Shown piece by piece: positions 20,380 through 52,036 of a stretch of 64,000 nt of DNA. Below the pieces are notes generated by a model. The model was not told the origin of the DNA. It did no database searches and saw nothing but the letters and a program-made list of their open reading frames with translations. This DNA comes from a virus (Duplodnaviria; Heunggongvirae; Uroviricota; Caudoviricetes): IMG/VR virus record IMGVR_UViG_2648501839_000008; one strand, 5' to 3'. Both the position numbers and the translations under genes were made by a program. Positions within the stretch are counted from its first letter, which is position 1. Every line of letters begins with the position of its first letter.

Positions 20380-23300
20380 TTAGTTACGTTGAGTGTTTGG
20401 GTTGAGTGATCCGCCAGGGCGTTTCTCTTGAGCGATAGTCTCAAGCGCGATTGCTTTCATCCGTTGAGCGGCATTGTTCCATATGCTTTCTGTATCGCCG
20501 GATTCAGTTGTGCTACCGTCACTATGGACGTTGATCTCAATTGATACCGGAGAAAGAACATTTCCTCCTCCACTCATACCATCGGTACTGAGCGTTACAG
20601 GGATTGTTCGACCATCAGGCAATGGAACATACGCCTCATTCATATCGCCTTCCCCAAACAACGCCAATTGAGGTGAGTTGGCGATACCGCCTTTCTGGTA
20701 TGCCCGGAGCGGGATCACGCCGTCTTTTCCAAATATGCCACCATTTGCAAACTTCGGAATTGCAGGAATACCATTCGTGCCATCGGCAGCAGAACTGGTC
20801 AGATTGTTGAAGCCGGAAGTTGAGCCAGAAGAACCGGACATCAATCCATCGAATCCACCACCAGCCCATACTGAAACCAAACCAGATGCAACTGTCGCGC
20901 CGAAATTCAACCACTTATTACCAGAGCCGGAAGCATTAGCTCCAAGCATTGCAAACGCGGCTGACAGAGCGCCGGTAACAGAGCTGAGATTCTGCATCGA
21001 GAAGATGGAGTCCTTCACTGCTTTTGTCTCAGCATCTTTGGCTTCGGTGCTATCAAATAGCCCCGATACCCAGCTACCAATCGCATTTGTTGCTGTGCCA
21101 ATTGCGCTGGTGGTCTGCTGTGTTGTTTGCCCCAATCCAGTTACCGAACTGGACGTCTCCTTCGTGGCTTCTCCTACCGACTTGTCGCCATTAACAGTGT
21201 TGCCCATTCGTACACCTTGATTGGCAACGGCAGAAGCAACCCCGGTCAGCAAATTGCCACTCTGTGAACTACCAGCTGCGGTGGTTCCCATCCCCAACAT
21301 GTTCATTAGAGGCAGCGTGATTTGCGACTTCACGACCATATTGGTGATATCTTTCAAAATGGACTGAGATAGGCTGGAGAAGCTCATCTTCCCGTTAATA
21401 ACGAAATCAGTCAGGACATCAGTTAAGCCACTAAACAAATCAGTCCAGGTGCTTTCAATCTGCTCTGCCAGGTTTTCGTATTCCAGTGCCAACTTCTGCG
21501 TCGCAGTCCCCGTCTCTTTAATAAGCGCGGTATTGCCAGCAGCAATAAGTTGATTGATTTTCTTTGTATAAAGCGCCACGACTTTAGGATCAGACGCCTT
21601 ATCACGAAGTTCTATCAACGCTTTGAGATTGCGGTTGTAGGTGTCTTCGAAATCAGCAACTTTCTCTTCACGAGACGGCGTATAGCCAGCACTAATAATG
21701 GAATCCGCCTCCGGTGCCCAAGTGGAGATCATCTGCTCAACATTGCGGCGATTAAACATCTCGCGATATTCAGGTGTCGCATTTTTGAGGTCTTCAAGAC
21801 GTTTTTTCGCCTTGTCGATCATCTCTTGAGTGATGAACTCGTTAGGAACCGCATTAGCCAAATCAGTTAGCGATTTCGTTGTATCGCGAAGAGACTGATC
21901 AAACGATACCGTAGCCTTAGAGCTTTCACCCATTTGCCCCATAAGCTGATCGGCTTTATCCAGAGCCTTCTGATATCCGGCCGCCAGTTTCTGTTGCGCT
22001 GCCTGTTCTTTCTTGGCCGCACGCTGCGAGGCATTAGCTGATCGTTGGGCTGCTTTCTCGGCGGCTGCGGCATCCTGTTCACGAGCTTTAGTCAGTGCGG
22101 CAATGGCTGCGGCACGCTCTTCATCGCTCATTTTCTCCAGAGAGCTGGCACTGGATGCTTTCTGCAAATTAAGCTGCGTCTTGAGTTGTTTAGGCCCAAT
22201 AATCGGCTTACCTTCGAAGTCCTTCATCGGAGTGCCATCAGGCAAAGTACGCTGATAAGTCGCAGAATCCATCTGGTTTCGCATATATTGCGCCAGCGCC
22301 TTCTGAGCAGCTTTATCAGTTGTACCTAACCCAAGAACCGTCCCCTGGTTTGACATTACGCCCTTACCAGTTTTGGCCGCGTTATCTCTCTCGAACTCTG
22401 CCTGTGTCAGTTCCTGAGCAACGGCTTCCAAATGCTCCTGATAACCACGAATACTGCCTTGCAGTTTCTGGATTTGCTCGGTATTGCCATCTTTTTTGGC
22501 TTTTTCAAGCTGATCATTAAGAGTCGCTATTTGCTTCTCGGTAGCATTCTTACGAGAAGAAAGTGAATCAACCAGTTTTTGCGCAGGCTCCAGATAGCTT
22601 TTGTTTACCGTTTCACGTAACGGTGCCAATAGCTTGTTCTTTTCGTCATCTGAAAGTGAACCGTCATCATTGATTTTCTGGATCTTATCCAGAGCCTCCT
22701 GCCGGGCTTTCACGAATGTTGCCGCGAAAATCTGGTTTTCCGCTCGAATTTTCTCAATCTGAGATTCGGCAGCCTCTTTAGCCAAACGCTTTGCTACAGC
22801 GCCGTCACCAAGAGCTATCGTGCCGGTTATCTTTTGATACTCTTCCTGATTTTTTTTCAGGCGTGCTTCGATGTCAGCCTTCGACTCTTTGTGAGTAATA
22901 ACACCGGCAGAGTTAGATACGTAATTAACACCCTCACCAGTTTTTAATGCTCGTTGATCAGCAAGAATCTGCTTTTCGAGCTTTTCTGCGCGGTCGGCCA
23001 TTTGTGCACGTTTGGCCGCTGTCATCGCTTCTGGTATTTTCCTAATCTCGTCAACGACCTTTGAAGTTTCGCTGCGGAGCATGGTCATGTACGTGATTAG
23101 GCCAGCAACAGCTACAGTGGCAACTGTAAATGCTGCCCCTATAGGGTTTGCTGCAATGAACGCCGTTAATCCTGCAAAAGCGCCTTTCAGCCCCGTAATC
23201 GCCCCACGGATGGCGAAAATGAGAGAGGGGATCGGAGCCAACCCCATACGTGCCGCACGATTGAATCGAGTTACTGCTGTAGCGCCGAGGTTAAATGGAG

Positions 23301-24948
23301 TCTGTATGGCGGTTGCCATCGTGGCGAAGGTACTAACCATCTGGCCGCCAGCACCAACTACGCCCATAATCCCTGCACGCATCAGTTTGAACGCAACCAT
23401 CGCGGCCACGACCTTACCGAGATTAATTACCAGCTCTTGGTTCTTTGCTAACCATTGAGCAAGCTGACGCAACCCATCGATTGCCGTCGTTAACCCCGAA
23501 CCTAAAGAATTAGCAAACGAAATCCCTTCGGCGCTATTCATGATTGAAGCCAGTTCTTTCATCCCCTTCGATAGAGAATCCAGATATCCGGCCTGACCAA
23601 CCCGATCAGCAAATAACGTGAATGACGTCTGAAGTTGCGCCAGCGCACCTGTGTAGGTTTGCATCATGTCTTTCGCTGCGTTCTCATTCTCCGCACGCAG
23701 ACCAACAAACATCAGAGACAACGCCTGTTTTGCCTCAACCGTACCGCTGGCAACGGCTTTAGTCAGTTCCCCCATAGTGATGCCTGCGGCGTCTGCCATT
23801 GCCTGCATCGCGTTAGGAACGGCTTCACCTAATTGCTGACGTAGCTCTTCCATTGACACGACGCCCTTACCGGACATCTGCTGAACGGCCACAGCCGCAC
23901 GTTTCAACAGCTCACTATCACCACCAAAACGAGCAACGGAGTCCACCAGCGCCTTCAGAGAGCCATCGGTTGGATCTAAGCCAGCAGAACGAAACTTCAC
24001 GAAGGAATCTGTTAACGCCTGCATCGCGAACGGCGCATTTTGAGCCATGTCTACGATGTACTTCATGTCATCGGCGGCAGCCTGGCCAGGGTTAGACTTC
24101 TCCTTATTCAACCCACGAAGCATCACCCGCATACGTTCCATTTCGGCCGCAGCTTCAACAATAGGCTTCTGCCATCCAAACATGATGTCAGTAACCGTTC
24201 TGGCTGCATCTCCGATCTCGCCAAGCAGGAAAATGTTGCCACGAAGGCCAGAGAACATACCTCCTTCGTTACTTTTACCGCTATGGCCAGAGCCGCTACG
24301 CCGCCCGCTGCCACCATCGCCACTGCCAGATGTACGAACGCGTACCGGCTTGCTAATCAGTTGCTGACGTCCGATAACTTCGTCCATCTGCTCACGAACC
24401 TTTTTCAGTCCCTCGGCAGCCTGGCTCGTTGTGACACCCCAATTACTGAGTCGCTTCGTCGTGGTATTAAGGCGCGTATTCATGCCACTCACGGACGCAG
24501 AGGCCTCTTTGACCTCCGTACCAAAGCGGCTTGCGCTTTTGCTTGCATAGGTCGACCAATCAGAGAAATCATTTAGCTCTGATTGCACTTTACGTAATGA
24601 CGCGGTGAGTTTATCTACTGAAGAAGTTGTCGTATCGACGCGCTCAATCAGGGCTTTAAGACCAGAATTGAGGCTGGTGATGTTACCACGCATTTTACGC
24701 GTAGCATCTGAAGCAAGCTCAAAACCGGCAGCTACATCCTGTAGTTTATCTGCCGTAGAATCGAGCTTGCTTTCCAGAACGCGAATGATACGGGCGACCG
24801 AACCCAAAGAGCGTTCAAAGGTTTGGATTTTTTGAGCAGGCTTTGTTACCTGCTCACCAAATCGAGTAAGCAGTTTCCCCGCACGATCGATTGACGCTGT
24901 AAACTGTTTGTCTTCCAGCGACAGGATAAACTCTACGTTTTGTGACAT
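20380..24948 (-). CDS. Tail tape measure protein (~1520 aa)
   Basis: Very long helical protein between GT and M with a Gly-rich C-terminal segment; probable ATG at 24948, 8 nt after the T stop. Confidence 0.8.
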   Translation of the reverse strand: MSQNVEFILSLEDKQFTASIDRAGKLLTRFGEQVTKPAQKIQTFERSLGSVARIIRVLESKLDSTADKLQDVAAGFELASDATRKMRGNITSLNSGLKALIERVDTTTSSVDKLTASLRKVQSELNDFSDWSTYASKSASRFGTEVKEASASVSGMNTRLNTTTKRLSNWGVTTSQAAEGLKKVREQMDEVIGRQQLISKPVRVRTSGSGDGGSGRRSGSGHSGKSNEGGMFSGLRGNIFLLGEIGDAARTVTDIMFGWQKPIVEAAAEMERMRVMLRGLNKEKSNPGQAAADDMKYIVDMAQNAPFAMQALTDSFVKFRSAGLDPTDGSLKALVDSVARFGGDSELLKRAAVAVQQMSGKGVVSMEELRQQLGEAVPNAMQAMADAAGITMGELTKAVASGTVEAKQALSLMFVGLRAENENAAKDMMQTYTGALAQLQTSFTLFADRVGQAGYLDSLSKGMKELASIMNSAEGISFANSLGSGLTTAIDGLRQLAQWLAKNQELVINLGKVVAAMVAFKLMRAGIMGVVGAGGQMVSTFATMATAIQTPFNLGATAVTRFNRAARMGLAPIPSLIFAIRGAITGLKGAFAGLTAFIAANPIGAAFTVATVAVAGLITYMTMLRSETSKVVDEIRKIPEAMTAAKRAQMADRAEKLEKQILADQRALKTGEGVNYVSNSAGVITHKESKADIEARLKKNQEEYQKITGTIALGDGAVAKRLAKEAAESQIEKIRAENQIFAATFVKARQEALDKIQKINDDGSLSDDEKNKLLAPLRETVNKSYLEPAQKLVDSLSSRKNATEKQIATLNDQLEKAKKDGNTEQIQKLQGSIRGYQEHLEAVAQELTQAEFERDNAAKTGKGVMSNQGTVLGLGTTDKAAQKALAQYMRNQMDSATYQRTLPDGTPMKDFEGKPIIGPKQLKTQLNLQKASSASSLEKMSDEERAAAIAALTKAREQDAAAAEKAAQRSANASQRAAKKEQAAQQKLAAGYQKALDKADQLMGQMGESSKATVSFDQSLRDTTKSLTDLANAVPNEFITQEMIDKAKKRLEDLKNATPEYREMFNRRNVEQMISTWAPEADSIISAGYTPSREEKVADFEDTYNRNLKALIELRDKASDPKVVALYTKKINQLIAAGNTALIKETGTATQKLALEYENLAEQIESTWTDLFSGLTDVLTDFVINGKMSFSSLSQSILKDITNMVVKSQITLPLMNMLGMGTTAAGSSQSGNLLTGVASAVANQGVRMGNTVNGDKSVGEATKETSSSVTGLGQTTQQTTSAIGTATNAIGSWVSGLFDSTEAKDAETKAVKDSIFSMQNLSSVTGALSAAFAMLGANASGSGNKWLNFGATVASGLVSVWAGGGFDGLMSGSSGSTSGFNNLTSSAADGTNGIPAIPKFANGGIFGKDGVIPLRAYQKGGIANSPQLALFGEGDMNEAYVPLPDGRTIPVTLSTDGMSGGGNVLSPVSIEINVHSDGSTTESGDTESIWNNAAQRMKAIALETIAQEKRPGGSLNPNTQRN

Positions 24949-42287: not shown

Positions 42288-42938
42288 ATGGCTAACATTA
42301 TCATTTCTAAAAAATCCATCATTGAAGCTGCTTCCATTGTATCCGATGAACTGCGCGAAAAAGCAGATCTGGCAACTCAAACATATAACGAACATTATAA
42401 AAATGGTACGCACACTAAAGCAGACAAAGCAAATATGCAAGCTGCGACCACTAAACTTGCTTACTTCATCAACAACGTCGTAAACGCAGTAGAAGACGAA
42501 AAATTATGCTCTGTTTTCTACTATGCGATTAAAGCAAGCAAACAAGCGCCAGAAGTATTTTTCCGTGATGCAATGACTAATAGTTATTCTCTGGAAAAAC
42601 TGGTTTATCTGGTTAAATCAATTAAATCTGGTAAATGCGTTTATTCCATCGCTGATATGTCAGGATCTCGTGTATTCGCTTTAATCGATATGATTAACGA
42701 CGAGATCGACACGTTCACCAATGGCGCTGTTTTCGATTTAATGAATGAAGCTAAAAAAGCGTGTGAAATTAAATTGGACGCTGGCTATACTCAAGCCAAC
42801 CAGTTGATCAATCTTTGCGAACGTCTTGGACTTGTTGAAAAAGTCAAAGGAGCTGGGAGCGCGAAAGCTGGTACTCAGCAATATCGCTTCATTAAAAATG
42901 ATTTCTACAATTATTTAGCTGATGCTTTCAAAGCGTAA
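42288..42938 (+). CDS. Hypothetical protein (216 aa), AT-rich moron gene 1
   Basis: ORF track; RBS AAGGAAAAA; codon usage much more AT-rich than the flanks. Confidence 0.5.
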   Translation: MANIIISKKSIIEAASIVSDELREKADLATQTYNEHYKNGTHTKADKANMQAATTKLAYFINNVVNAVEDEKLCSVFYYAIKASKQAPEVFFRDAMTNSYSLEKLVYLVKSIKSGKCVYSIADMSGSRVFALIDMINDEIDTFTNGAVFDLMNEAKKACEIKLDAGYTQANQLINLCERLGLVEKVKGAGSAKAGTQQYRFIKNDFYNYLADAFKA

Positions 42939-43440: not shown

Positions 43441-43445
43441 AATCG

Positions 43446-43470
43446 AGCGCCCACTATGGGCGCTTTTTTC
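43446..43470 (+). terminator. Rho-independent terminator of the moron
   Basis: AGCGCCCACTATGGGCGCT followed by TTTTTT. Confidence 0.7.
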
Positions 43471-43924
43471 GTTTCCAATACTCCCACCATAACGCGCCAT
43501 CATTAGCGCGTTTTTTATTGTCTTTAACTCACTCCAACAACATAAAAATAAGCGCCAAAATAACGCCATAGACGCGCTTTTATATCCTTACCAGTACATA
43601 CCCATTACTTAACACATTAACGCGCTTAAAACGCGTTATATTGCGCTATAGAGTATGGTTAATCATTGGCTTTTAGTCTTGCTTTATGATCCGCGTTTAT
43701 TTGTCGGCGCGGATCGGCATTTTGTTTTGTTCCGTATCCGCTCGCGTATTATGTGCGCGTGATTTTTCACATAATCACACCACTTAATCACGTATGTGAT
43801 TATGCTACGAAAGAAATCTGGATGTCTCAGGCGACGAAAGTCATCATAATTTTCGCCGCTCACCTGTCCGACAACCGCTGGTTGGATTCCACCAGCTTCC
43901 CGATGTTTTTTCTACATAAAGGCG

Positions 43925-44048
43925 AATGCAGCCGTTTCCCGAAAAAATCCTGGCCGTTTCCCGTCGGCTCATGAATGCTTTCCTCGCCGTTTCTGAAAAT
44001 TTCCCTGCGGCAGCTGGTGGCTATAGATAAAGGGCCGTTTCTGGCCCT
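43925..44048. repeat. Iteron-like direct repeats (GCCGTTTCCCG/GCCGTTTCTG family), cluster 1
   Basis: At least 4 copies (about 43930, 43953, 43985, 44033); same repeat family as 46820-46960. Confidence 0.5.
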
Positions 44049-44056
44049 CTTCTCAG

Positions 44057-44539
44057 TTACACGCCATCAAGGATGTGGATGCGGTTGCTTGCGTATACAT
44101 TCAGCATAAAGTTAGCGCAAAACAGTTTCCATGTGTCAACGCCAGCGGTATACGTAATGTTTTTGCATTTAATCGCATTGTTGGCGATCCGCATCCCCTG
44201 CGATACTGCTTCATCGTCGGAAAATTTGAACGACGATTGAGTTTTAATCCAGAAAGAAATCTGCGTAGCGAACTCAATCAGCTTGGACTGGCAGAATCGC
44301 CCGGAGCGCACCGGAAAGACGAACGTTCCGAATCCAGAATTTACCACATACGCTTTCTCAAATACCCGCGAGTAACGACGATTGCCAATGATGTCGCGTG
44401 CAATAATGCATTTTTCTTGTGCTGACAGTTCTACCGTCTCATTGTCGCGCCATGCACCAAGTACTCGTTTTTCAATGTCAGAGAACGTTACAGCGATATT
44501 GCCATGTGCGGGTGCGTTTACAGTAGCGATAAAATTCAT
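44057..44539 (-). CDS. Hypothetical early protein (160 aa)
   Basis: ORF track; terminator hairpin GGGCCAGAAACGGCCC just 3' of the stop. Confidence 0.4.
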   Translation of the reverse strand: MNFIATVNAPAHGNIAVTFSDIEKRVLGAWRDNETVELSAQEKCIIARDIIGNRRYSRVFEKAYVVNSGFGTFVFPVRSGRFCQSKLIEFATQISFWIKTQSSFKFSDDEAVSQGMRIANNAIKCKNITYTAGVDTWKLFCANFMLNVYASNRIHILDGV

Positions 44540-44560
44540 GATTAATTCCTTATCGTAAAT

Positions 44561-44593
44561 AACAAATTGTTTTCTTGTTTGTGTTAATTATCG
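44561..44593 (-). promoter_or_regulatory. Class-A site (palindrome plus extended -10-like element)
   Basis: aacaaattgttttct + gtgttaattatcg. Confidence 0.5.
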
Positions 44594-44743
44594 TTGTACG
44601 AATAAGGCGTCAAAGTGGAAAGTTGCGGTAGCCGGACGGGAACAGGTGGGTTTGTCGGTTGCCTGGAGGTAAGAGGTTGGTGTTTTTAGCCTGAGGGAAG
44701 CAGGATGGTCATTTAAGGCCACCAGCATTGGTGACCTTATTCT

Positions 44744-45031
44744 TCAGTGGAGCAGACCGATGTCGATGGTATCCCCTGAATCATCCACACGGATCATCAG
44801 CATGGCAAAGGCGTTTAGTGGATAGCTTGCGTGCCATTCAGGGAAGCGGTCATCTCGCATGAAGTCGGCAATGTCGTAAACGCATCCCTCAAAGTGGAAG
44901 AATCGCGTGCTTACCTGCTCATCATAATCCACATGATCCATTTCTTGCTGTTCTGTTTCCGGCAAGTCCAGCCATGATTCGAGGAATACATTTTGTGCTT
45001 TGGTGGTAATGGTGAAATCAGTCATGAGCAT
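44744..45031 (-). CDS. Small highly acidic early protein (95 aa)
   Basis: ORF track; about 20 Asp/Glu versus 5 Lys/Arg. Confidence 0.4.
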   Translation of the reverse strand: MLMTDFTITTKAQNVFLESWLDLPETEQQEMDHVDYDEQVSTRFFHFEGCVYDIADFMRDDRFPEWHASYPLNAFAMLMIRVDDSGDTIDIGLLH

Positions 45032-45044
45032 ATCCTCACTGCGT

Positions 45045-45110
45045 AAACATGTTGTTTTCTTGTTGTTGTAATTATCGCAGCGAGATAAAGGCAGAAAACA
45101 AATTGTTATC
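45045..45110 (-). promoter_or_regulatory. Class-A sites (two palindromes flanking TGCGATAATTA)
   Basis: aaacatgttgttttct + tgttgtaattatcgca + gaaaacaaattgttatc. Confidence 0.5.
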
Positions 45111-45153
45111 GGGCATAAGAAAATGGCGCGGTTTACGCGCCATTCAAAGAGGA

Positions 45154-45549
45154 TTAAGCGAATACGCTTTCAGGGATTAAGGTGCCGGCAGGAATGCCAG
45201 AGGTAATGCGCAGACCGTACTGGCCAATCCAGGTGGTGCTGGTGTTCAGGCTGGAGGCGAATACGGTGTTAACCATATTCATCATGGTTTCAAACACCTC
45301 TTCATCAACCTGGCGGAAGTAGTTCTCGATTTTCAGCAGCAGCGGGTCAGTTGCATCGAGAATGGACTGGTATTGAGTCGCGTACTCGCCGCCGGAGGCA
45401 TCACCTTTACGCACGATCGTACTGGCCTGGACTTCGGCACCAGTTTCGGTGTTGTACGTAACAACGGTGATTTTTGCCACATTCTTACCTTCGGCGGTTT
45501 CAGAGGCATAGTAAACATCAACTGTCAGTTTTTCGCGTTTAACGGTCAT
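45154..45549 (-). CDS. Hypothetical early protein
   Basis: ORF track trimmed to the internal ATG at 45549. Confidence 0.4.
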   Translation of the reverse strand: MTVKREKLTVDVYYASETAEGKNVAKITVVTYNTETGAEVQASTIVRKGDASGGEYATQYQSILDATDPLLLKIENYFRQVDEEVFETMMNMVNTVFASSLNTSTTWIGQYGLRITSGIPAGTLIPESVFA

Positions 45550-45591
45550 TTCACTCTCCGTAGTGTATTGGTTATTTTTATATTCTATGAT

Positions 45592-45613
45592 CGTAAGTAT
45601 GTACTTACAATAC
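45592..45613 (-). promoter_or_regulatory. Class-B palindromic site preceded by a terminator hairpin (45615-45641)
   Basis: cgtaagtatgtacttacaatac; adjacent GCCCCG...CGGGGC hairpin with a T-run on the minus strand. Confidence 0.4.
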
Positions 45614-45675
45614 AAAAAAGCCCCGTAAGGATGGCGGGGCTGTCGTACTGTCGACTAATTACCACTTGCACATTA

Positions 45676-45987
45676 TCAGGCTATTGCCATCACTGATGCT
45701 CTCTGAATTTCTTGCTGGGCCACGCGGTTAACTTCCATCAAGGCCAGTTCGAGCTGATGTTCCGGCCACATTCTTTGAAATGCCACCCATCCTTTTCCAC
45801 GCTGGCGACGAACATTCATTACATAACGAGTAAAGGTGTTTTTATCGAAAGACACCGCTGTTTCACGGAACAGACGAATAGAAGTTCCATTGGCAACGAT
45901 GTCTAGCAAAGTTAATTGAGCAACCAGTGCAGGCTTCTCTTTTCTCTTCTGGTCTTTGTCCAGACCAAGAACCAATGATTTTTTCAT
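45676..45987 (-). CDS. Hypothetical early protein
   Basis: ORF track trimmed to the ATG at 45987. Confidence 0.4.
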   Translation of the reverse strand: MKKSLVLGLDKDQKRKEKPALVAQLTLLDIVANGTSIRLFRETAVSFDKNTFTRYVMNVRRQRGKGWVAFQRMWPEHQLELALMEVNRVAQQEIQRASVMAIA

Positions 45988-45997
45988 CACAACTCCG

Positions 45998-46040
45998 TAA
46001 ACAACTTGTTTTCTCAATGGCGTAAATAATACCAGTAAGA
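45998..46040 (-). promoter_or_regulatory. Class-A site
   Basis: taaacaacttgttttct. Confidence 0.5.
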
Positions 46041-46140
46041 AAACGGCTACAAAGCATAATGATCAGGTGCATGATCGATATGCAGGTTCCTCCCAGCGGC
46101 TATAGAGAAATTAAGCCAGCAATGCTGGCTTTGGTTGGGA

Positions 46141-46470
46141 TTACGCGAATACCTCAAGAAACTCCTGAACGTCCCAATGCTGGACGAGGTGAAGATAGAC
46201 CTTAGAAATCACGTCATTTTCGCTATCGCATGTGAAGTAGTACTTCTGGCTGCGGTTGTATGTGTCCACACAAAATTCGCTCATATCCATAAAGTCAGCA
46301 TCTTCACCCATGTCGCAAATCATCAAAGCAGGTGCGTCATCACGAGTCATCAGCTCAAGCACCCACCGCGAATTGATCAGAGTGGAAGACCAACCTTCTA
46401 ACTCATAAAACTGATCAAACTCTTTTTGAGTTAATTTCTTGATTTGGTTGATGTCGATATTTGCAAACAT
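46141..46470 (-). CDS. Small acidic early protein
   Basis: ORF track trimmed to the ATG at 46470 (AAGGA RBS); the track start lies inside the class-A palindrome. Confidence 0.4.
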   Translation of the reverse strand: MFANIDINQIKKLTQKEFDQFYELEGWSSTLINSRWVLELMTRDDAPALMICDMGEDADFMDMSEFCVDTYNRSQKYYFTCDSENDVISKVYLHLVQHWDVQEFLEVFA

Positions 46471-46482
46471 AAAGCAATCCTT

Positions 46483-46520
46483 AAACAACATGTTTTCTTG
46501 ATGGTGTTATTATCGCAATA
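46483..46520 (-). promoter_or_regulatory. Class-A site
   Basis: aaacaacatgttttct + gatggtgttattatcgcaat (TGcGATAAT on the minus strand). Confidence 0.5.
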
Positions 46521-46819
46521 ACGCACAGGCGAAAAAGGATTTTATTCCGGTGAATGTGGTTTTGGCAGTGAGTTTTCAGGTTCAGTACCGAGTACACTTT
46601 TTACATTATTCTGATTTAGTGGCTGGTGGGCAGAATAATCCTCTCCCCGAAAACCTACTGAAATCGATTGTGACCCGTTGGCTGTCTGGCACAATTACGC
46701 TGTAGCTGGGCATTCAGAGGGAATCCAGCGGTAAGCAAGTCCGCCTACGTGAGCGCCTCTCTTCTTCCCGCACATTACAGGTGGGTAGCCGCAACTCTCC
46801 CTCTCGCTATACCGGTACG

Positions 46820-46960
46820 CCACCTTTCCTGAACCGGCATCGAGCCTTCTCCCGAAATCCACACAGGCAACTCGACCGTTTCCCTGAAAACCTCCAGCCG
46901 TTCCCCGAAGGCAACCCAGCCGTTTCTGTAGCGGGATGCAGCCTTTTCCCTGTATGGACC
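46820..46960. repeat. Iteron-like direct repeats with ~21-22 bp periodicity, cluster 2
   Basis: Five to six copies of cAGCCgTTtCCCtGaa-like units (46842, 46873, 46895, 46917, 46938). Confidence 0.55.
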
Positions 46961-46999
46961 GAAGGCTGACCGTAGGGGTGTTACGGGGGATAAAATCAG

Positions 47000-47960
47000 G
47001 AGTTGAATAAATACGAAAAAGGAGGCGACACCCCTCCTTCCCTCCCCACTTATACATACCTGGCTTCTTCGCTATGCATGTTGTGTTTTATCTGTCTCAA
47101 CCTCTCTATAGGCGTTAATGCTCACTCCTTCCAGAATGTTCTATACGGCGACTATTTCTGTTGGTGAATTGGGTGTGTTGTTTTCTCTGTCGGTGTATGT
47201 GGTTTCGTTCGTTTTGCGGTGGTTCTTCTATGGGGTGTTCTCGTCGTTTTGGTGATTGTTCTTCTCCATGTATGGAGTAATGGCAGGTGGGCGAATCCTT
47301 TCGTTATTGTGTTTGAGTTGTTTGTCTGGAGTGTGTGAAGGGCTTTTGTAGTTATTCGTGTATTGGGTAATGGCGTTTCCCGTGATTGTTATGTTTCGTG
47401 TCTTTTGGGATTGAGAGAATCCTTGCGGTTACAGGCTTCGTTGGGTTTTCAGTGATTCTGGTGTTTCTTCGCTGTTTGGGGAATGGCGTGTCGTGGGTAT
47501 CGCGCGTATGAATGTTTTCGGATTGCCTGTGAAAGTTAGGTTGGCTGTCCGGTAGCCTGGGGAGAAGAGGTGGGTCTTTTCGGTAGCCTGCCATAAAGAG
47601 GTTGGTTGTTTTGGGGAATGGCATGTGTGTTATTTAGTTGTTTTGTTATAGCTGAAAATAAGTTGTTTATATAGTTATGTAACGCAATGGGAGTGATTTT
47701 GAGCGTGTGTTTTTTCTTGGTAGTGTGTTGGGTCGTCTGTGGTGAAAATTGGACGCTGTGGCGCTGTCTGCTGCGTAGAATTACGGGTATAAGAAGTGAT
47801 GTGTGAATACGTCAATTTTTTAGACCAAATCGGGTGAAAGCGTTGACGTTTCGTTGATCTGTTATTTAGTTGTTTTCTTATTGGTATAAACAACGTTAAC
47901 CTATTGATATTTAAAGGTGTGATTGCAGGTATGGAAGAAGAGTAGTGGCGATCAACGGAT
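47000..47960. repeat. Noncoding, strand-biased (G+T-rich on plus) degenerate repeat region
   Basis: No credible ORF; recurrent GGGGAATGGCGTGT-like and CGGTAGCCTGG..GAGGTGGGT-like units; the latter also occur at 44615-44690. Confidence 0.5.
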
Positions 47961-48022
47961 TCTTATAGAAAAGAATCAAATTGTGACCGCCATTATCAAC
48001 TGATTGATTAAGCTAATTACAC

Positions 48023-49252
48023 TCAAACATCCCCGTTCTTAATCCACTGCCTGACTTGCTCGTCTTGTGCGACTTCTTTCTCATGTTTGGCAATATACAA
48101 GTCTGGCAATAGGGGTGGAGCGAATTCAGGCTCTGTCGCACGCCACTTTTCATATGCGTCACGCATGGATTTCTCAACATTCCAATGCTCCAACTCTTGG
48201 TATTCAATCGGCCAGTTATCCTGCAATCTCTTCACTGCATTAGCCAGGTCGTATCGGAAGTAAGGATTAAGACCAATGAAATTACCAGCCAGCATGTCAT
48301 CAACCTCCTTCACTCTGGCAATCTTAGAAAACTTACCAATAGCAATGTTGAGGTCCCAATCTGACACGAACAACAAAAGTGCTGCAAATGCCAGAAACTT
48401 AGCTTCCCCGTATGCTCTGTCGCTAACCGTTTTTGTCTGAAACTCAATGTAATTGCCCATCACAAAACTAGTAAGCTTACAGGTATTACTTATCTCGTCC
48501 TCCAAATGCGATGGATCGAGAATTGTGCGGTCACGATTATTGTTTATGTGTTCTAAGATTACAGCAATGTCTCTATGTGAGACTGAAATTTCACGCAATT
48601 GCTGGAGAGTCTTGATGTGAACTCTTAGCACCTCTTTGTCAATCGCACGCTTCCAAGAAAAACCAGGCACAGTAACCTGAATGGGCGCGAAAGGTAGAAT
48701 ATCAGGAGTTGTCCATGCTAGATATGCATCACGTAACCCACTAATATAATAAAGCCAGTCTAAATGCTCGCTTTCTAACCATATTTCAAATGTGGAATCC
48801 TTTCGCTTATTGAAGAACCATTCCCTCATCTGCCACATTTTTTCTTGAGTAAATATCCCTTCCTGTATGCCGGCACAGACCAGCTTTCGTATTACCTGCG
48901 AATACTTTGTTCGATCTTTTGTGAATGAGACAAGGTGCTGCTTCACCTCAGATGTTAGTCTATCTCCATAGAAATCACATGATGGATGATGGCCTTGACC
49001 ATCTTCACCGGTAAATCTGAAATGCGCCTTCTTGTGATAGCCACCATTCCTAGTGGCTCTAACGAACGAACCACCTCCAACTTTGCAAATGGGGCAGATG
49101 ATATCGTCACGGGCAATAGCATGAACCGAGCTGTCATCTAAATTCTTTAGCGCCAAGTACTGCTCAGGATCGACTTCTTTTTGTAACGATTTTGAAAAAG
49201 CGGTATCAGTCATTCCAAGCTCCGAGCAAGGGGTTATTTGTTCAATTATCAT
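48023..49252 (-). CDS. Hypothetical protein (409 aa) with N-terminal Cys/His cluster
   Basis: ORF track; ...CPICKVGGG...HHPSCDF... possible zinc-binding motif; AT-richer than the structural genes. Confidence 0.45.
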   Translation of the reverse strand: MIIEQITPCSELGMTDTAFSKSLQKEVDPEQYLALKNLDDSSVHAIARDDIICPICKVGGGSFVRATRNGGYHKKAHFRFTGEDGQGHHPSCDFYGDRLTSEVKQHLVSFTKDRTKYSQVIRKLVCAGIQEGIFTQEKMWQMREWFFNKRKDSTFEIWLESEHLDWLYYISGLRDAYLAWTTPDILPFAPIQVTVPGFSWKRAIDKEVLRVHIKTLQQLREISVSHRDIAVILEHINNNRDRTILDPSHLEDEISNTCKLTSFVMGNYIEFQTKTVSDRAYGEAKFLAFAALLLFVSDWDLNIAIGKFSKIARVKEVDDMLAGNFIGLNPYFRYDLANAVKRLQDNWPIEYQELEHWNVEKSMRDAYEKWRATEPEFAPPLLPDLYIAKHEKEVAQDEQVRQWIKNGDV

Positions 49253-49695: not shown

Positions 49696-49762
49696 GAAAC
49701 AATTTGTTTTCTTATGTGGCTTATTATCTCAATCAACAAAAGGTAGAAAACAAATTGTTTTA
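49696..49762 (-). promoter_or_regulatory. Class-A sites (two palindromes)
   Basis: gaaacaatttgttttct ... ttattatctc ... gaaaacaaattgtttta. Confidence 0.5.
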
Positions 49763-49845: not shown

Positions 49846-51879
49846 TTACTTAACCTGGTGGCCAGGTTTAGCACCAGCATCCGGGCTTAACAGGAAGATA
49901 TCTTTCCCGCCGGGGCCAGCAGCCATCACCATACCTTCGGAGATGCCGAAGCGCATCTTACGCGGAGCCAGGTTAGCCACCATAATGGTGTGACGACCAA
50001 TCAGTGCCTGTGGGTCTGGATAAGCAGAACGGATGCCTGAGAAGACATTGCGTTTTTCACCGCCGAGATCCAGCGTCAGGCGCAGCAGTTTGTCAGAACC
50101 TTCAACAAACTCTGCGTTTTCGATCAGTGCCACGCGCAGGTCAACTTTGGCAAAGTCGTCAAAGGTGATGGTTTCCTGAATCGGGTCGTCTGCCAGCGGG
50201 CCAGTAACTGGCGCGGCAGTAGCTTTCACTTCTTCTTTAGACGCTTCCACCAATGCTTCCACCTGTTTCATGTCGATACGGTTATACAGTGCTTTGAACG
50301 GATTCACTTTATGGCCCAGCAGCGGTTGCTGGATGCCATCCCAGGTCAGTTCCGTATTCAGGAATGCTTCCGCACGTTCTGTCAGTTTCGGCAGTACCGG
50401 TTTCAGGTAAGTCATCAGCACGCGGAACAGGTTGATGCCCATTGAGCAAATCGCCTGCAGGTCAGCATCGCGACCTTCCTGTTTTGCGACTACCCAAGGA
50501 GCCTGCTCGTCGACATAGCGGTTAGCCAGGTCAGCCAGTGCCATGATTTCACGGATAGCTTTACCAAATTCGCGGCTTTCCCACGCTTCACCAATCACTT
50601 CAGCGGCATCAGTGAAGGTTTTGTACAACTGCGGGTCAGCCAGCTCGCTTGCCAGCACACCGTCAAAACGCTTATTGATAAAGCCAGCGTTACGGGACGC
50701 CAGGTTAACCACTTTGTTCACGATATCGGCATTCACACGCTGAACGAAATCCTCCAGGTTGAGATCGATATCATCAATGCGCGAAGAGAGTTTCGCAGTG
50801 TAGTAGTAACGCAGGCTGTCAGCGTCAAAATGATTCAACCAGGTGCTGGCTTTAATAAAGGTGCCGCGAGACTTGGACATCTTCGCGCCGTTCACCGTCA
50901 CATAGCCGTGAACAAACAGGTTGGTCGGCTTGCGGAAGTTGCTGCCTTCCAGCATGGCAGGCCAGAACAGGCTGTGGAAGTAAACGATATCTTTACCGAT
51001 GAAGTGGTACAGCTCGGCGGTGGAGTCTTTCTTCCAGTATTCATCGAAGCTGGTAGTGTCGCCGCGCTTGTCGCACAGATTCTTGAAGGAACCCATGTAG
51101 CCAATCGGTGCGTCCAGCCAGACGTAGAAATATTTACCCGGCGCGTTCGGAATTTCAAAACCGAAGTAAGGTGCGTCGCGGGAGATATCCCACTGTTGCA
51201 GACCAGATTCAAACCACTCCTGCATTTTGTTTGCCACCTGCTCCTGCAACGCACCGCTGCGGGTCCATGCCTGCAACATTTCGCTGAAAGAGGGCAGATC
51301 AAAGAAGAAGTGTTCAGAATCACGCATTACCGGGGTAGCACCAGAAACCACCGATTTCGGCTCGATCAGTTCAGTCGGGCTGTAGGTCGCGCCGCAAACT
51401 TCACAGTTATCGCCGTATTGATCTGGCGCTTTACATTTCGGGCAGGTGCCTTTCACAAAACGATCCGGCAGGAACATGCCTTTTTCCGGGTCGTACAACT
51501 GAGAGATAGTGCGATTTTTAATAAAACCGTTCTCTTTCAGGCGAGTATAGATAAGCTCAGACAACTGACGGTTCTCTTCGCTGTGCGTCGAGTGATAGTT
51601 GTCATAGCTGATGTTAAAGCCTGCGAAATCAGTCTGGTGTTCCTGACTCATTTCGCCAATCATCTGCTCCGGTGTGATACCAAGTTGCTGTGCTTTCAGC
51701 ATGATCGGCGTACCGTGGGCATCGTCGGCACAGATGAAATTAACCTCGTGGCCGCGCATTCGCTGGTAACGAACCCAGACATCAGCCTGGATGTGCTCCA
51801 GCATATGGCCGAGGTGGATTGAGCCGTTAGCGTACGGCAGCGCGCACGTCACCAGAATTTTCTTCGCGACTTGGGTCAT
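49846..51879 (-). CDS. metG: Methionyl-tRNA synthetase
   Basis: 677-aa translation from [26 protein letters not shown] (HIGH-type motif) through KMSKS to the C-terminal tRNA-binding domain; enterobacterial MetRS; true ATG at 51877-51879 (track ORF extended upstream). Confidence 0.95.
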
Positions 51880-52036
51880 AGTAGGCATTACTTCTTTGTA
51901 GTGAAAAGGGGCTTGATAGTAACAAAATGGCCTTATGTCTGCCATGTGATAACAGCATTTCTCATAAATGATTAAATGTCGCAGCTGGAGTACACTACAA
52001 GGCGACAATTGCGCAAATTAAAATAAAGGAGACGGG

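Follow-up and report, generated by a model that had tools for sequence, protein, structure and literature searches.

What does a phage-plasmid keep in a 1.5-kb stretch of DNA that carries no genes? The question is raised by a 64,000-nucleotide stretch of a Caudoviricetes genome (IMG/VR record IMGVR_UViG_2648501839_000008; hereafter the window), part of an SSU5/pHCM2-type phage-plasmid of ~110 kb, in which a noncoding region at 46492-48022 separates the start of a minus-strand gene for 109 amino acids (46141..46491) from the stop of another minus-strand gene for 409 amino acids (48023..49252). SSU5/pHCM2-type phage-plasmids, which are inducible and carry resistance genes (PMC9600943), are frequently encountered in clinical E. 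coli, Klebsiella and Salmonella. We found no description in the literature of cis-acting sites for packaging, lytic replication or early-gene control in SSU5-type elements, nor any of virion ends, an origin or transcripts for this region in papers on SSU5, pHCM2 and Cyrano. A preliminary description took it for a candidate iteron-type replication origin or noncoding RNA (ncRNA) locus.

Here, we find that the region shares its repeats with a second gene-free site, that the two sites bracket a cassette of five small genes, and that both sites are conserved across genera. The best explanation, which we put forward tentatively, is that the region acts in cis as the boundary and control element of a terminal repeat carrying this early cassette.

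The region is noncoding and conserved

High-identity matches to the region occur in four phage records (Cyrano, CMS-2020a and PhiR41_1 are named) and 273 plasmids, and at lower stringency it is found in syntenic position in 840 plasmid records spanning at least seven genera (Klebsiella, Escherichia, Enterobacter, Salmonella including pHCM2, Citrobacter, Cronobacter and Buttiauxella), with phage SSU5 also matched. It is present in 239 of 5,426 complete E. coli genomes, plasmid-borne every time, and the plasmids that carry it are typed IncFIB.

The preliminary description saw no credible open reading frame (ORF) here, and comparison across lineages bears this out. Every ORF inside the region is interrupted by stop codons in other lineages, and the PGAP annotation of the 239 E. 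coli genomes is empty here. Across lineages, none of the six frames appeared to be under purifying selection: the ratio of nonsynonymous to synonymous polymorphism (pN/pS) was ~0.5-1.3 in all six, a weak test in which the positive control, a misaligned gene, failed. Small hydrophobic peptides and TAATG-coupled plus-strand mini-ORFs, hinted at by tblastn, were rejected on the same grounds, with pN/pS not low, frequent stops and a concurring PGAP annotation.

Compared with other genera, nucleotide identity is 0.53-0.83 per block, on par with or above that of the flanking small genes (0.61-0.67); because the DNA is noncoding and yet as conserved as these genes or more so, the comparison implies constraint. 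The other unannotated gaps of a relative plasmid are coding or appear to hold tRNA genes. Large noncoding DNA in the element is therefore limited to the region, its 0.6-kb twin and the iterons of the plasmid rep gene (the last two described below).

Composition and repeats are retained in 15 diverse lineages. The plus strand had been called strongly G+T-rich, which holds for 47100-47900 (GC skew +0.2 to +0.6, AT skew -0.3 to -0.6) but not for the iteron block at 46700-47060, which is C-rich on that strand. Within the former, a G+T-rich tract (47100..47546, plus), whose minus strand is C+A-rich, G-poor and unstructured, carries copies of GGGkAATGGCr in larger units of ~90-115 nucleotides; four copies of this motif lie at 47275-47623. 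We found no GATC enrichment in the region, and a CRISPR-repeat mimic and a CsrA sponge, both considered from sequence only, were rejected for want of a consistent hairpin.

The same repeats occur at two sites around five small genes

The preliminary description had reported five to six direct repeats at 46820-46960, spaced 21-22 bp apart. We confirmed six iteron-like, same-strand copies of CAGCCgTTTCCCtG in a right C-repeat cluster (46817..46956, plus), which start at about 46817, 46839, 46871, 46892, 46914 and 46936 with spacings of 22, 32, 21, 22 and 22 bp. The two-helical-turn phasing is real, with one gap of 32, and the helically phased direct repeats of ~17-22 bp looked for in an iteron-type origin are present. 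Matches to CAGCCgTTTCCCtG with at most three mismatches number 12 across the window (4.9 expected), four of which fall within 80 bp at the array, and the six copies are far more tightly clustered than chance would give; Tandem Repeats Finder missed the array. The number of copies varies between lineages by exact 22- or 44-nucleotide units, the behaviour one would predict for an array of binding sites, and every lineage retains the repeats. Their absence from related elements, which the preliminary description had named as a point that would speak against an origin, was thus not observed.

Scanning ~144 kb with a position weight matrix (PWM) of the C repeat yielded five hits in the right cluster, one in a second cluster and one by chance. 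The second cluster, outside the coordinates of the preliminary description, consists of GCCGTTTCCC repeats at 43926..44000 (plus), with three clear copies (43926, 43948 and 43981) and partial copies, and it aligns to the right cluster. In the ~144 kb scanned, the GCCGTTTCCC repeat is confined to these two places (46817-46955 and 43926-44000), which have the same orientation, lie 2.9 kb apart and flank the five small genes. A scan of viral contigs for GCCGTTTCCC-type iterons in other phage groups returned only SSU5-type elements and four chance hits, the latter GC-rich coding repeats. The GGGkAATGGCr motif was considered as a reversed C repeat, with which it agrees at 8 of 10 positions; the idea was dropped because the motif gave no hit with the C-repeat PWM.

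The left cluster sits in a second gene-free region of 0.6 kb (43441-44056), a convergent junction conserved between genera, where tandem plus-strand terminators (two or three) are found along with repeated TAACGCG/TAAGCGCC words and a CCCATTAC motif. Near its right end, a GGGCC-N6-GGCCC hairpin (44032-44047) forms the minus-strand terminator that closes the leftward gene array. Being conserved (in Salmonella, Klebsiella and pHCM2) and lying between convergent terminators, the left cluster argues for a site that acts at the level of DNA and not of RNA.

A second repeat family recurs in the same way. D2 units (GGTAGCCTG-N6-AnAGGTkGGT) occur at 47551, 47582, 44627 and 44657, four hits where 0.04 were expected, in agreement with the earlier remark that second and third repeat units exist and that D2 also occurs near 44615-44690. 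The right copies (47547..47612, plus) form two tandem 31-bp units, each containing CGGTAGnnTG, and the left copies (44623..44690, plus) read GGTAGCC..AGGTGGGT. The same cis elements, GCCGTTTCCC clusters and D2 units, thus stand at two places in the same orientation and bracket the cassette, which supports the terminal-repeat explanation.

The cassette itself (44057..46491, minus) comprises genes for 160, 95, 131, 103 and 109 amino acids, each preceded by its own copy of a promoter and palindrome, and sits at the very end of a ~105-kb leftward gene array. Three of its proteins (44744-45031, 45154-45549 and 46141-46470, minus) are very acidic, with isoelectric points of 4.1-4.6, and lack matches in Pfam and the PDB. 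We take them as candidate early proteins of the DNA-mimic or anti-restriction type, and the cassette would in this respect resemble host-takeover genes. The basic 103-amino-acid protein (45676-45987, minus) is confined to this phage-plasmid group; its AlphaFold2 model (pLDDT 79) has a four-stranded sheet and a long C-terminal helix, and a DNA-binding fold was rejected as the model has no significant PDB match. A phmmer search of the PDB returned nothing for three neighbouring proteins.

A proposed terminal repeat with an early cassette

We infer that SSU5-type virions have a direct terminal repeat (DTR) and that the two arrays mark its ends. In the plasmid form the terminal repeat would be present once. 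In the lytic cycle, both GCCGTTTCCC arrays (43926-44000 and 46817-46955) would serve as recognition sites for the terminase or for an accessory end-binding protein, and cuts at fixed sites would leave the ~3-kb five-gene early block duplicated at both ends of the packaged DNA, so that the region would most likely contain the inner boundary of a long DTR. The rest of the region would isolate and control this block: its 850-nucleotide C-rich, G-poor untranslated sense strand would stop read-through from the cargo genes, and operator-type palindromes would link the block to the early-promoter regulon of the element.

The packaging genes offer a comparison. TerL is ~25% identical to T5-like terminases and also matches phages with other packaging strategies, and the portal shares ~50% identity with its counterpart in siphophages (106-122 kb) of Rhizobium, Pseudomonas (Nickievirus), Xanthomonas and Stenotrophomonas, with which the element shares the gene order helicase, ParB-like genes, TerS, TerL, portal. 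Phage B1VFA has fixed termini and a 3,605-bp DTR, and that of V1VFA-S is ~3,939 bp (PMC12509600); the Nickievirus Nican01 was scored as "DTR (long)" (PMC11256456). B1VFA and Nican01 resemble the present element in the ~50% identical portal, in the order of the terminase genes and in a small-gene cassette toward the convergent point with noncoding gaps upstream. They differ in that equivalent repeat arrays were not found in them.

A parallel in layout is found in T5, whose terminal repeat carries individually promoted pre-early genes. Its end falls within an untranslated repeat region of 1.2 kb that is conserved, and nine 14-mers of the same orientation straddle this end (10.1101/866236). "Repeat Region 3" of the left T5 terminal repeat is a candidate injection stop signal of unproven function (10.1101/866236). 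Both T5 and the present element have ~1.2-1.5 kb of gene-free DNA beside small, individually promoted early genes, and in both this DNA combines several direct-repeat families, palindromes, a G-rich skewed segment and an array of same-orientation 14-mers. The topology is also alike, running from a terminator through the early cassette and the repeat-rich noncoding region to further leftward genes. The T5 region is reported to be better conserved than many terminal-repeat ORFs, and conservation here is about equal to that of the flanking small genes. By contrast, the T5 repeats are irregularly spaced and accompanied by DnaA-type boxes, whereas here the spacing is a regular 22 bp and DnaA boxes are lacking; and the terminal repeat is established for T5, whereas for SSU5-type phages we infer it.

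Several points weigh against a terminal repeat. The clusters are 2.9 kb apart, compared with DTRs of 3.6-3.9 kb in the relatives. A crude k-mer scan revealed no obvious equivalent arrays in nickie or B1VFA, matching boundary motifs sought in the B1VFA sequence did not locate its DTR, and we found no DTR coordinates for B1VFA or Nican01 in the literature (PMC12509600, PMC11256456). We found no virion-end data in the literature on SSU5-type elements. At the BLAST level, homologues of the T5 pre-early proteins are absent and there is no similarity to the T5 repeat region. Finally, regular 22-bp phasing is something one more typically sees in arrays of the initiator or centromere kind than at known terminase sites.

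Alternative functions of the region

Such phasing would fit a phage-type lytic origin, which we regard as a possible but doubtful alternative. A phage initiator would bind the six phased repeats, the plus-strand promoter would activate the origin and the neighbouring A+T-rich stretch would open, with the left mini-cluster serving as a second cis site in the manner of crr for the P4 origin. At the lambda ori, a promoter reads into an iteron array and transcription activates the origin; in an origin of this type the array sits in or next to the initiator gene, and an A+T-rich stretch and a palindrome come after it. The array resembles the lambda, P4, P1 and F-type iteron origins in its same-orientation repeats about two turns apart and in their variable copy number, and it resembles P4 in having a second cluster a few kb away. 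As in lambda, a conserved promoter reads into the array: the best conserved sigma-70-like promoter (TTGTGA-16-TGgCACAAT; 46668..46695, plus) points rightward into it in 10 of 15 lineages. Beyond the array lies a moderately A+T-rich stretch (46980..47042) with an IHF-consensus match at 46994, followed by a hairpin with a minus-strand T-run (47042-47016). The two least stable stretches of the region (47642-47682 and 47874-47914) fall within its best-conserved block, and one oriC-13-mer-like GATCTGTTATTTA occurs at 47856. With a helicase, primase, Pol III alpha, RNase H and ligase of its own, the element probably requires a lytic origin, and the region is its only large noncoding DNA besides the rep iterons.

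Other properties of the locus speak against this function. No DnaA box (TTWTNCACA) occurs in 46400-48100, the array is among the most stable DNA of the window, and the dip in stability beside it (46980-47020) is mild, at only ~1.5 standard deviations. The palindrome that follows the array is not retained outside the E. coli lineage, and the 13-mer-like GATCTGTTATTTA is limited to the lineage of the window. Whereas iteron origins have an initiator and a clear unwinding element, no initiator gene lies at or beside the array, the replication genes are 40-60 kb off and no clear unwinding element is seen. The left cluster, moreover, lies in a silent convergent zone. The locus also differs from P1- and F-type plasmid origins in that the Rep iterons of this family are elsewhere and unrelated in sequence.

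A Rho-type insulator is unlikely as the whole function, but it is compatible with a terminal repeat and may be only part of the story. Leftward cargo transcripts would enter an 850-nucleotide untranslated C-rich RNA, load Rho and stop before the cassette, and the C-rich plus-strand arrays would do likewise for rightward transcripts. A rut site consists of at least ~80 nucleotides of untranslated, little-structured RNA in which C clearly outnumbers G. The minus-sense sequence of 47145-47989 has this composition: it is the most extreme C>G tract in the 64-kb window (C/G up to 8), contains no ORF and is unstructured, with folds near 0 kcal/mol. As with rut sites, the long, C-rich, G-poor untranslated RNA would be made downstream of genes, each C-rich tract lying after a transcription unit on the strand that gives C-rich RNA, and the composition is conserved in the 15 lineages. 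However, rut sites need neither 14-mers in 22-bp phase nor 850 nucleotides; the tract here is far longer than required and has conserved specific motifs. The left cluster, in addition, already follows two or three intrinsic terminators, and the relative nickie is without such a skew.

The bracketing arrangement would also suit a partition or silencing array, in which, for example, a ParB/Srx-like protein (two are encoded beside the terminase) bridges the clusters and loops or silences the early cassette in the lysogen. We consider this improbable. Two same-orientation clusters around one cassette, regular phasing and ParB-like genes conserved throughout the phage group are consistent with it, but binding by the ParB-like proteins is hypothetical, the ParA-type cassette lies elsewhere with a different palindrome upstream, and the repeats are not palindromic, unlike typical parS sites.

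A functional ncRNA, the second proposal of the preliminary description, appears about as improbable. It would be either a long G+U-rich plus-strand RNA or a C/A-rich minus-strand RNA of ~770 nucleotides running from a weak promoter (47815-47787) to the hairpin of 47042-47016. In its favour are conserved but weak promoters on either strand and the terminator-like hairpin of the E. coli lineage, and the plus strand folds more stably than the minus strand (-285 versus -224 kcal/mol), forming a 950-nucleotide rod in three lineages in which a C-rich arm pairs with a G+U-rich arm. This giant rod is reproduced equally well by 25-nucleotide block shuffles (z ~0) and so reflects composition only, and a DNA-level inverted-repeat alignment was not significant. 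Searches of Rfam gave no hit at gathering thresholds over the whole window and only two chance-level hits (E >=3) in a permissive search of 44400-48200, and no tRNA was found. Sliding RNAalifold detected no conserved structure, with a structure conservation index below 0.5 in all 120-nucleotide windows on both strands, and the only stable hairpin (47946-47990, z = -3.7) is invariant and hence without covariation. The terminator, furthermore, is not conserved, and the same repeats are present in the silent zone.

As for the plasmid mode of replication, a relative that is 97.7% identical (NZ_CP027358.1) carries a RepB-family rep gene ~34 kb away, outside the window, flanked on both sides by at least 14 iterons GTATGCTGTCAGCGGT in 21-bp phase (22245-22386 and 23480-24033 of the locus taken from that record). 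These iterons are unrelated to the array repeat CAGCCGTTTCCCTG, and the array PWM has no hit near rep. Since this gene has its own, unrelated iterons, the plasmid origin lies there and not in the region. The suggestion of an iteron origin that fits the partition cassette thus fails on the location of the rep iterons and on the missing DnaA box, the stable array and the lack of an adjoining initiator. An incA-like role, as a copy-control element or second set of iterons for the plasmid replicon, is the earlier idea taken literally and is extremely improbable: iteron-like phasing and IncFIB typing would agree with it, but the rep iterons GTATGCTGTCAGCGGT differ in sequence and adjoin rep ~34 kb off.

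Other elements in and around the region

Beyond the repeats, the region contains regulatory sites. The promoter and operator of the 109-amino-acid gene (46482..46517, minus) combine an extended -10 (TGcGATAAT), seen at this gene, with a palindrome AAACA-N3-TGTTT, and are one of ~10 such sites in the window. A promoter-proximal palindrome family, GAAAACAA-N-TTGTTT(TC), occurs on the minus strand at 1017, 4773, 44576, 45059, 46013, 46497, 49711, 62478 and 63207 and on the plus strand at 49746. Several of these palindromes are preceded by a GATAAT-like -10 box, and one lies in a region presumably upstream of the ParA-type partition operon. These sites look like operators of a single global repressor or of the partition DNA-binding protein.

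At the other end, a right block (47624..48015) holds operator-type palindromes (47636-47669), a half-site (47868-47880), the two least stable stretches mentioned above, the weak promoters (47787-47870) conserved on either strand and an imperfect palindrome TGGCGATCA-N-TGACCGCCA (47946-47990) that is invariant. The core of the RfaH ops element, CGGTAGnnTG, is found to the left of this block, at 47550-47559 and 47581-47590; these are its sole hits in the window, where ~2 would be expected by chance, and they lack the first two G of the full GGCGGTAGnnTG, which in RfaH ops (JUMPStart) leaders stands on the non-template strand of a long operon leader. In Klebsiella lineages only, the ops-like cores are followed on the same strand by a DUF262 gene and a type I restriction-modification (R-M) operon.

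Two Chi octamers are conserved, GCTGGTGG at 44013-44020 and a second at 46622..46629 (plus), the latter in most lineages; no Chi cluster beyond these two sites was seen. In its orientation, the Chi at 46622..46629 would stop RecBCD coming from the right. In pHCM2- and Enterobacter-type lineages, an 80-amino-acid plus-strand gene aimed into the array (pHCM2 locus 2019-2261) replaces the block with this Chi and the promoter (46540-46700).

The right block ends where variable cargo starts. Its edge (~48010) is a cargo hotspot at which gene content begins to vary between lineages, with the 409-amino-acid protein, a 561-bp gene, small genes or DUF262 and type I R-M genes to the right, and several draft contigs stop 0.2-2 kb right of the region. 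Full-length metG (methionyl-tRNA synthetase) and apbC, an unusual phage cargo, lie right of the variable genes (window 49846-52008 and neighbours). We considered whether the region is an independent mobile module and rejected this, as its pieces in large Klebsiella plasmids are an insertion sequence (IS)-truncated fragment of an SSU5-type element. In NZ_CP043934.1 (58446-66911) the fragment is fused to DUF262 and type I R-M genes; such non-phage Klebsiella plasmids, 150-230 kb in size, are recombinants with an SSU5-type element. Outside the window, an unannotated gap in NZ_CP027358.1 (~72.3-72.9 kb; 42300-42930 of the locus taken from it) contains tRNA-3'-end-like sequences (..GGAGTCGAACCACC..). 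A tRNA cluster would be a further T5-like trait.

Implications

Repeat arrays in phage terminal and control regions are known, as are iteron-like arrays; the two-site architecture of this family we found described nowhere in the literature. The region and its twin at 43.9 kb are the obvious candidates for the cis-acting sites of SSU5-type elements. In a speculative and quite unlikely extension of the terminal-repeat proposal, SSU5/pHCM2-type elements would be temperate relatives of the T5 strategy, in which a ~3-kb terminal repeat with a host-takeover or anti-defence cassette enters first, the region combines the repeat boundary with a "stop and control" function for the stepwise entry of DNA as in T5, and the arrays bind an end-recognition protein.

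Whether the region is a virion end, an origin or an insulator bears on how these elements live, and the answer would show how the element switches from plasmid to phage. It would also tell which DNA enters a new host first, with consequences for the anti-defence genes and the cargo hotspot at 48.0 kb, and would help in the engineering and typing of these elements.

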